The translations under genes and the position numbers were made by a program. Shown here in pieces: positions 11,583 to 11,879 of a DNA stretch of 64,000 nucleotides (within the stretch, counting starts at the first letter, position 1; every line of letters starts with the position of its first letter). Source of the DNA: Escherichia coli. GTDB taxonomy: Bacteria > Pseudomonadota > Gammaproteobacteria > Enterobacterales > Enterobacteriaceae. Below the pieces are notes generated by a model that saw only the letters and a list, made by a program, of their open reading frames with translations, did not search any database and had not been told where the DNA came from. The stretch lies in the NCBI RefSeq assembly GCF_041248615.1, contig NZ_CP158426.1; one strand, written 5' to 3'.

Positions 11583-11659
11583 TGGTTGCGGGGGCCGGAT
11601 TTGAACCGACGACCTTCGGGTTATGAGCCCGACGAGCTACCAGGCTGCTCCACCCCGCG
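11583..11659 (-). tRNA. metV: tRNA-fMet (initiator, anticodon CAU), copy 1 of 3
   Basis: Reverse complement reads CGCGGGGTGGAGCAGCCTGGTAGCTCGTCGGGCTCATAACCCGAAGGTCGTCGGTTCAAATCCGGCCCCCGCAACCA, 77 nt with encoded CCA. Which copy is metZ, metW or metV is nominal. Confidence 0.95.
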
Positions 11660-11692
11660 TCACCGTACTGCTTTTACTTCATCAAATTTGAT

Positions 11693-11769
11693 TGGTTGCG
11701 GGGGCCGGATTTGAACCGACGACCTTCGGGTTATGAGCCCGACGAGCTACCAGGCTGCTCCACCCCGCG
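11693..11769 (-). tRNA. metW: tRNA-fMet (initiator, anticodon CAU), copy 2 of 3
   Basis: Identical 77-nt sequence, 110 bp from copy 1. Confidence 0.95.
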
Positions 11770-11802
11770 TCACCGTACTGCTTTACTTCATCAAATTTTA
11801 AT

Positions 11803-11879
11803 TGGTTGCGGGGGCCGGATTTGAACCGACGACCTTCGGGTTATGAGCCCGACGAGCTACCAGGCTGCTCCACCCCGCG
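11803..11879 (-). tRNA. metZ: tRNA-fMet (initiator, anticodon CAU), copy 3 of 3
   Basis: Identical 77-nt sequence, 110 bp from copy 2. Confidence 0.95.

Follow-up and report, generated by a model that had tools for sequence, protein, structure and literature searches.

The metZWV Locus

The window (the whole 64,000-nucleotide stretch of Escherichia coli DNA that was analysed) contains three tandem tRNA genes. All are on the minus strand and are transcribed leftward: metZ first, then metW, then metV. The genes are as follows.

11803-11879, minus strand: metZ, first gene of the operon, tRNA-fMet1 with anticodon CAU (ARAGORN, Rfam RF00005; identical to K-12 b2814)
11693-11769, minus strand: metW, second gene of the operon, tRNA-fMet1 identical to metZ (ARAGORN, Rfam; identical to K-12 b2815)
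11583-11659, minus strand: metV, third gene of the operon, tRNA-fMet1 identical to metZ (ARAGORN, Rfam; identical to K-12 b2816)

ARAGORN predicted three tRNA-Met(CAT) genes with the anticodon cat at position 35. Each gene scored 61.4 bits against the full Rfam model RF00005, for which the gathering score is 29. The three 77-nt genes were identical to each other. TRF placed a tandem repeat of 2.8 copies at 11579-11881, with 97% matches at a 110-bp period. A 25-nt probe taken from the 3′ end of the tRNA had exactly three matches in 64 kb compared to 0.00 expected from shuffled sequences. An earlier sequence-only reading of this DNA had described three perfectly identical 77-nt tRNA genes with 110-bp periodicity, and both descriptions were borne out by ARAGORN, Rfam and TRF. 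That reading did not give the strand.

The ARAGORN label tRNA-Met (cat) is shared by initiator tRNA, elongator tRNA-Met and tRNA-Ile2 and by itself does not separate them. A C1xA72 mismatch was read in the tRNA sequence and Rfam flagged the first pair as non-canonical. An unpaired 1:72 position is a determinant of formylation and of exclusion from EF-Tu. On reading the sequence the D stem of all three tRNAs carries A11:U24, which is an initiator mark of E. coli tRNA-fMet. The anticodon stem contains three consecutive G:C pairs (G29:C41, G30:C40, and G31:C39). The anticodon CAU and an encoded CCA end are present in the array tRNAs, and G46 is present in all three copies, placing them in the tRNA-fMet1 type. 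C1xA72 is a known feature of tRNA-fMet (PMC7949028) and three G:C pairs in the anticodon stem are an initiator feature (PMC3017606). G46, which is m7G once the tRNA is mature, defines tRNA-fMet1, and A46 is found in the tRNA-fMet2 of K-12 metY (PMC3017606).

The array was compared to K-12 MG1655 (NC_000913.3). The 1,101 bp around the array were 99.9% identical with one mismatch. The three tRNA sequences, both spacers and the mltA and amiC neighbors are the same in K-12, and NC_000913.3 names metZ (b2814), metW (b2815), and metV (b2816) as "tRNA-initiator Met(CAU)". There is no functional difference between the two; the window and the K-12 record are written in opposite orientations. The initiator isotype, also proposed in the sequence-only reading, is settled because all the determinants are present and the genes are identical to K-12 metZ, metW, and metV. 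Judged on its sequence, the array is almost certainly metZWV, the E. coli tRNA-fMet1 operon with three tandem initiator genes. There is next to no chance that the genes encode elongator tRNA-Met or tRNA-Ile2 (CAU to lysidine), as the ARAGORN label would allow, given the initiator signature of C1xA72, A11:U24, and G29G30G31:C39C40C41 (PMC3017606, PMC7949028) and a sequence identical to K-12 metZ/W/V. Formylation by Fmt and use in the P site have been reported for the identical K-12 sequence (PMC3017606, PMC7949028). The locus is an ordinary feature of the core genome. It is textbook knowledge and has already been described; it is not novel.

The gene metY belongs to the same initiator class, and in E. 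coli B its sequence is the same as that of the metZWV tRNA (PMC3017606). It differs from metZWV in being a single gene found elsewhere, upstream of nusA-infB and outside the window, and in being co-transcribed with protein-coding genes. K-12 metY has A46 (tRNA-fMet2) compared to G46 in the window copies.

Structure of the Operon

The remaining parts of the operon are also encoded on the minus strand.

11893-11930, minus strand: metZWV promoter (sequence, published knockout primer, cross-species conservation)
11880-11892, minus strand: G+C-rich discriminator GCGCATC followed by the 6-nt 5′ leader CACGGA (sequence; conserved across Enterobacterales)
11770-11802, minus strand: metZ-metW spacer, 33 nt, AUUAAAAUUUGAUGAAGUAAAGCAGUACGGUGA in RNA sense, with G(-2)A(-1) at its end before metW (sequence)
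11660-11692, minus strand: metW-metV spacer, 33 nt, with G(-2)A(-1) at its end (sequence)
11547-11576, minus strand: intrinsic terminator, hairpin GAACACCC-UAAC-GGGUGUUU followed by a U-run (terminator scan)

The minus strand 5′ of metZ reads GGTAAAAAAAAGG-TTGCAT-N16-TATAGT-GCGCATC-CACGGA and then runs directly into the tRNA. The promoter elements are an A-tract (11923-11930), a -35 element TTGCAT (11915-11920), a 16-nt spacer and a -10 element TATAGT (11893-11898). A generic sigma-70 promoter scan of 11400-12150 predicted no site, including none in the spacers. It missed the promoter because the -35 element TTGCAT matches only three of the six consensus positions. The promoter was recognized instead from published primers and from conservation across species. 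The stretch is the 5′ homology arm of a published metZWV knockout primer, and the promoter mutations of Kapoor et al. lie in or beside the metZWV -10 element (PMC3017606). Upstream of the array the motif TTGCRN-N15-18-TATAGTGCGC was conserved in other species, at 52 of the 62 loci.

The terminator hairpin was also present in the MFE fold of the precursor, and its sequence is that of the 3′ arm in the published primer for the metZWV knockout (PMC3017606). The fold of the whole precursor (391 nt) gave no signal over shuffled sequences (z = -0.64), as expected because the precursor is a string of tRNAs. One promoter motif upstream and one terminator hairpin after metV make up the layout of an operon. 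The three metZWV genes are known to be co-transcribed and to be down-regulated by ppGpp (PMC3017606).

Both spacers are 33 bp long, with two 1-nt indels and a single substitution between them, so the near-identical 33-bp spacers of the sequence-only reading were also found. In RNA sense the metW-metV spacer opens with a 12-nt palindrome, AUCAAAUUUGAU (11681-11692). This corresponds to a perfect 12-bp palindrome, ATCAAATTTGAT, directly 3′ of metW, and the version in the metZ-metW spacer is imperfect. Spacer starts resembling AUYAAAUUUGAU are common in other Enterobacterales. From its sequence the palindrome 3′ of metW may be a candidate processing signal.

G(-2)A(-1) precedes every copy in the window. 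G-2/A-1 also precedes 160 of the 161 identical fMet copies in the 62 loci from other species. As summarized in PMC11143913, the work of Meinnel and Blanquet (1995) and Lazard and Meinnel (1998) indicates that the correct cleavage site for E. coli RNase P in pre-tRNA-fMet is selected through G-2, which offsets the C1/A72 mismatch. The conservation of G(-2)A(-1) at the sequence level fits such a role of G-2 in RNase P site choice. The leader CACGGA is the product that RNase P is predicted to remove.

Together these parts suggest how the tRNAs would be made. The operon would be transcribed leftward as one precursor from the sigma-70 promoter TTGCAT-N16-TATAGT with its G+C-rich discriminator, and the transcript would end at the intrinsic terminator 3′ of metV. 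With the conserved G(-2) as a guide, RNase P would probably cleave at the 5′ end of every tRNA. Cleavage within the A/U-rich spacers and trimming of the 3′ ends would then be expected to yield three CCA-encoded tRNAs. Following aminoacylation and formylation the tRNA would bind the ribosomal P site and translation would start.

Neighboring Genes and the mltA Reading Frame

The operon is flanked by two genes on the plus strand. A reading frame that overlaps the array is listed with them.

10256-11509, plus strand: amiC, left flank, converging on metV (RefSeq annotation)
12088-13185, plus strand: mltA, right flank, 365 aa, diverging from metZWV (RefSeq WP_000678646.1)
11806-12087, plus strand: spurious 94-codon 5′ extension of mltA, not a gene (mechanical ORF list)

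The amiC stop codon is separated from metV by 73 bp (11510-11582). The N-terminus of the mltA product, MKGRWVKYLLMGTVVAMLAAC, is of the lipoprotein type. The annotated neighbors in the window are all core genes and include recBCD, ptrA, argA, amiC, mltA, tcdA, and csdAE.

The mechanical ORF list contained an ORF of 459 aa at 11806-13185 with a TTG start, which begins 282 bp before the annotated start of mltA (12088). The TTG is antisense to the acceptor end of metZ. The frame runs antisense through metZ and then through the metZWV promoter, and the in-frame stop upstream of it is at 11734, inside metW. RefSeq annotation and K-12 agree on the start at 12088. The extension is spurious because of this annotated start and because of its path antisense through metZ and the promoter. 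This TTG is repeated from unit to unit (11806 and 11696), and the one in the metW unit opens a 42-aa ORF at 11696-11824. The sequence-only reading had called the extension a 281-bp artefact of the repeat. It is an artefact, of 282 bp, and its cause is mechanical ORF calling from the recurring TTG rather than the repeat as such.

A number of other features were noted in the window. The mltA-tcdA intergenic region (13186-13423) is 238 bp here, in K-12 and in TUM1881, and 76 bp in NU14, H19, ST648, and LF82. The extra DNA contains two inverted REP-like elements (~13271-13380) and an Rfam ES036 sRNA match (13307-13349), and it is flanked by the similar hairpins GGGTGAGGGGTAACCTCAC and GGGTGAGGGATAACCTCGCC. 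Between relA (45671-47905) and mazG (48001-48792) there are 95 bp (47906-48000); mazE-mazF are absent from the window strain and are present between relA and mazG in LF82. CsrB was predicted on the plus strand at 34799-35158 (382.9 bits) in the syd-yqcC intergenic region. GcvB was predicted on the minus strand at 16365-16570 (199 bits) in the ygdI-gcvA intergenic region. Both are at the position expected from K-12 and both are missing from the feature table of the genome.

Conservation Across Species

One genome per species was scanned for two identical fMet genes 15-45 nt apart, a sample outside which single-copy species fall. The scan found 64 tandem fMet loci. Three copies were present in 44 loci and two copies in 16, including those of E. 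albertii, Salmonella enterica arizonae and diarizonae, and Dickeya. Tatumella saanichensis had four copies. Marinobacter and Ferrimonas had five to six.

In Enterobacterales the array is located between amiC and mltA, has two to four copies, and encodes the same tRNA sequence as E. coli. In most Enterobacterales loci where mltA was found, the array is ~205-215 bp from the mltA start. The metZ-metW locus of Salmonella (S. enterica arizonae and diarizonae) has the same amiC-array-mltA arrangement and an identical tRNA. The Salmonella loci sampled contained two copies with 28-29-nt spacers compared to three copies with 33-bp spacers here. On sequence comparison the locus is old and conserved, with occasional gain or loss of a unit.

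The arrays of five to six genes in Marinobacter nauticus (L025) and Ferrimonas balearica (L033 and L043) are outside Enterobacterales and are not flanked by mltA or amiC. Several of their copies have exactly the E. coli gene sequence.

Copy Number Within Escherichia coli

The amiC-array-mltA arrangement was present in 5,425 of 5,426 complete E. coli genomes. Copy number was surveyed by searching synthetic one-, two-, and four-copy versions of the locus against these 5,426 genomes. Approximately 92% of assemblies had three copies. Assemblies with fewer copies were counted in the three main backgrounds, which are distinguished by what lies 3′ of metV.

No-island background (3,461 genomes): 226 assemblies with one or two copies, 109 of them with exactly one
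T6SS-island flank: 169 assemblies with one or two copies
PTS-island flank: 24 assemblies with one or two copies, 10 with two and 14 with one

These counts cover the three backgrounds listed, outside the minor island types (breakpoints at query positions 280 and 283). The total of assemblies with one or two copies is at least 419 of 5,425 (7.7%). Four copies were present in at least nine assemblies. The sequence-only reading had proposed a comparison of copy number across strains. The comparison gave one to four copies, with many of the reduced calls being suspect.

The copy number products differ by whole 110-bp units. Among the two-copy strains one retains the metW-metV spacer and another the metZ-metW spacer. 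In the four-copy strains HS and DEC5A the spacer order is 1,1,2. HS (NC_009800.1) had four copies in two independent assemblies. Its two middle copies (L075, 411-487 and 521-597) both carry C65U, giving G49:U65 in the T stem, and have the same spacer after them. The C65U change and the spacer shared by these two copies show that HS has duplicated a variant unit. The HS copies also mean that the array copies in E. coli are not always identical.

Apparent zero-copy states in ST648 (CP008697.1) and WB61 (CP020025.1) were considered as natural deletions and rejected. A single N replaces the array in each (ST648, L003 position 6000; WB61, L071 position 581). Both assemblies are "complete" in RefSeq and have no annotated metZ, metW, or metV. 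The zero-copy state of these two genomes is an assembly gap and not a deletion.

The one-copy assemblies fell into groups that shared a submission series but had unrelated backgrounds. Members of the CP0672xx, AP02xxxx WP, CP1721xx-CP1722xx GF, and TUM series were present among the one-copy assemblies with an empty site and again among those with the PTS island. This suggests that some pipelines collapse the 110-bp repeat. Close relatives were also discordant. Descent in the Casadaban strain lineage was considered for the single copy in MC1061 and C3026 and was unsupported, the MC1061 derivative DH10B having three copies. The two copies of NRG 857C were not borne out by LF82, a close relative, which has three. 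The discordant relatives and the clustering by series fit either very fast real turnover or assembly collapse. Assembly error probably lies behind many of the reduced-copy calls.

The strongest alternative is that most of the one- and two-copy states are assembly collapses, and that within the species and over short timescales the locus is nearly invariant at three copies. The chance of this is a little short of even. It would account for the grouping of one-copy assemblies by series in unrelated backgrounds, for the pairs MC1061 and DH10B (one and three copies) and NRG 857C and LF82 (two and three), and for an N placed exactly at the array in both zero-copy assemblies. Against it, collapse cannot create a duplicated variant copy, and the four copies of HS were assembled twice independently. 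Both classes of spacer retention occur among the two-copy assemblies, and two, three, or four copies are found at the syntenic locus across Enterobacterales species. Copy changes with a phenotype have also been described. PMC11721125 attributes to Nilsson 2006 an amplification of metZW in Salmonella that compensates for the loss of fmt, an example of selection altering the copy number of this locus. PMC9981150 attributes to Samhita 2014 the finding that loss of initiator gene copies in E. coli is disadvantageous in rich medium and advantageous in poor medium. Copy number change is real at the species level and in E. coli HS.

What goes beyond the textbook at this locus is the survey of 5,425 genomes, with one, two, three, or four copies, and the warning of artefacts among the reduced-copy calls. 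The probable assembly errors matter for studies of tRNA gene copy number that use public assemblies.

The locus also appeared in plasmid records. PLSDB records of 4-5 Mb with the metZWV locus (NZ_OL790696.1, NZ_CP134663.1, NZ_CP141089.1, CP125156.1, and others) probably represent chromosomes misfiled in the plasmid collection. Most matches in that collection were of this chromosome size, which makes it a poor guide to arrays on plasmids. Some true large plasmids have one initiator tRNA gene of near-identical sequence, among them NZ_MG591698.1 (E. coli, 354 kb) and NZ_CP109732.1 (Enterobacter, 91 kb).

Mechanism of Copy Number Change

Between neighboring units, 77 bp are perfectly identical and 187 bp nearly so (tRNA-spacer-tRNA). 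With perfect 77-bp direct repeats in a 110-bp period, misalignment in register could delete or insert complete 110-bp units, either by replication slippage or by unequal exchange between sister strands. According to PMC7063769 and the work of Bi and Liu and of Bzymek and Lovett cited there, direct repeats of less than 200 bp that are close together in E. coli rearrange largely independently of RecA, through slipped misalignment when the replication fork passes. On the present analysis RecA-independent slippage would be somewhat more likely than the RecA route as the source of copy number change here.

That the copies change mainly by RecA-dependent unequal homologous recombination, the RecA route having been put forward in the sequence-only reading, is rather unlikely. 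The 77 bp of perfect and 187 bp of near identity between adjacent units would suit it, and unequal crossing-over predicts products that differ by whole 110-bp units. However, replication slippage yields the same products, and the repeats fall in the class of close direct repeats below 200 bp reported to be largely RecA-independent (PMC7063769).

Initiator tRNA Dosage

The three metZWV copies, together with metY elsewhere, would set the dosage of initiator tRNA. The level of initiator tRNA tracks gene copy number, and a metZWV deletion mutant is cold sensitive and allows non-initiator tRNAs to initiate (PMC3017606). Growth is also impaired in a metZWV deletion mutant (PMC11480407). As established for K-12, metZWV supplies most of the initiator tRNA and its dosage affects growth rate, cold tolerance, and start-site fidelity.

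The 110-bp repeat could be a reversible switch of initiator tRNA dosage in which units are repeatedly lost and gained under selection. We consider such a switch unlikely. If it existed, up to ~8% of assemblies (those with one or two copies) and the few with four would represent real lineages. Fewer copies might be favored, for example, in nutrient-poor or stationary-phase conditions. The single copy of MC1061 compared to the three of DH10B would then reflect fast real turnover and not assembly error.

The Island Site 3′ of metV

In ~1,964 of 5,425 complete E. coli genomes (~36%) the alignment to the window ends 1-9 nt 3′ of metV. NU14 and LF82 have a T6SS island at this position. H19 has a 5-kb island encoding PRD, PTS, MalY, KpsF, and phosphoglycerate dehydrogenase functions. 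The T6SS island at metV is the PAI-metV of the literature, described at the same position 3′ of metV in extraintestinal pathogenic E. coli (PMC2907695). PAI-metV is absent from the window, where amiC ends 73 bp beyond metV and the site is empty.

In island strains the sequence departs from that of the window at the amiC stop codon and matches it again 1-9 nt from metV. The 73-bp amiC-metV segment (11510-11582) is the part that the islands replace. The terminator hairpin after metV in island strains differs from that of the window. No tRNA-derived direct repeat was seen at the island junctions in the island strains inspected. No integrase gene is annotated in the 64-kb window, and the 25-nt probe, with up to three mismatches allowed, matched the three genes only, giving no partial copy of the tRNA 3′ end in 64 kb. 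The sequence-only reading had reported no integrase or attachment-site-like structure with the tRNAs. This held for the window, and the hot spot for islands 3′ of metV belongs to other strains. From the sequences compared, the amiC-metV region looks like a replaceable variable segment and not an integrase attachment site.

It is very improbable that in this strain the tRNA genes mark a site of integrase-type attachment or a scar left by a mobile element. Such a site would be in keeping with the breaks 1-9 nt 3′ of metV in ~36% of complete E. coli genomes, with the T6SS island (NU14 and LF82) or the 5-kb PTS-type island (H19) at the break, and with the naming of PAI-metV (PMC2907695). However, the window has no integrase and has core genes on both sides, no partial tRNA 3′ end was found within its 64 kb, and the amiC-array-mltA synteny is ancient. 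In addition, the island strains exchange the whole amiC-metV segment, carry another terminator, and showed no direct repeat at the junctions.

A hairpin of the CCGCAA...TTGCGG type after metV is common to the T6SS- and PTS-island types (NU14, L004 19950-20011; H19, L005 19945-20002) and is unlike the K-12-type hairpin of the window. From the sequence, the empty site may itself be derived, the product of a replacement, and not ancestral.
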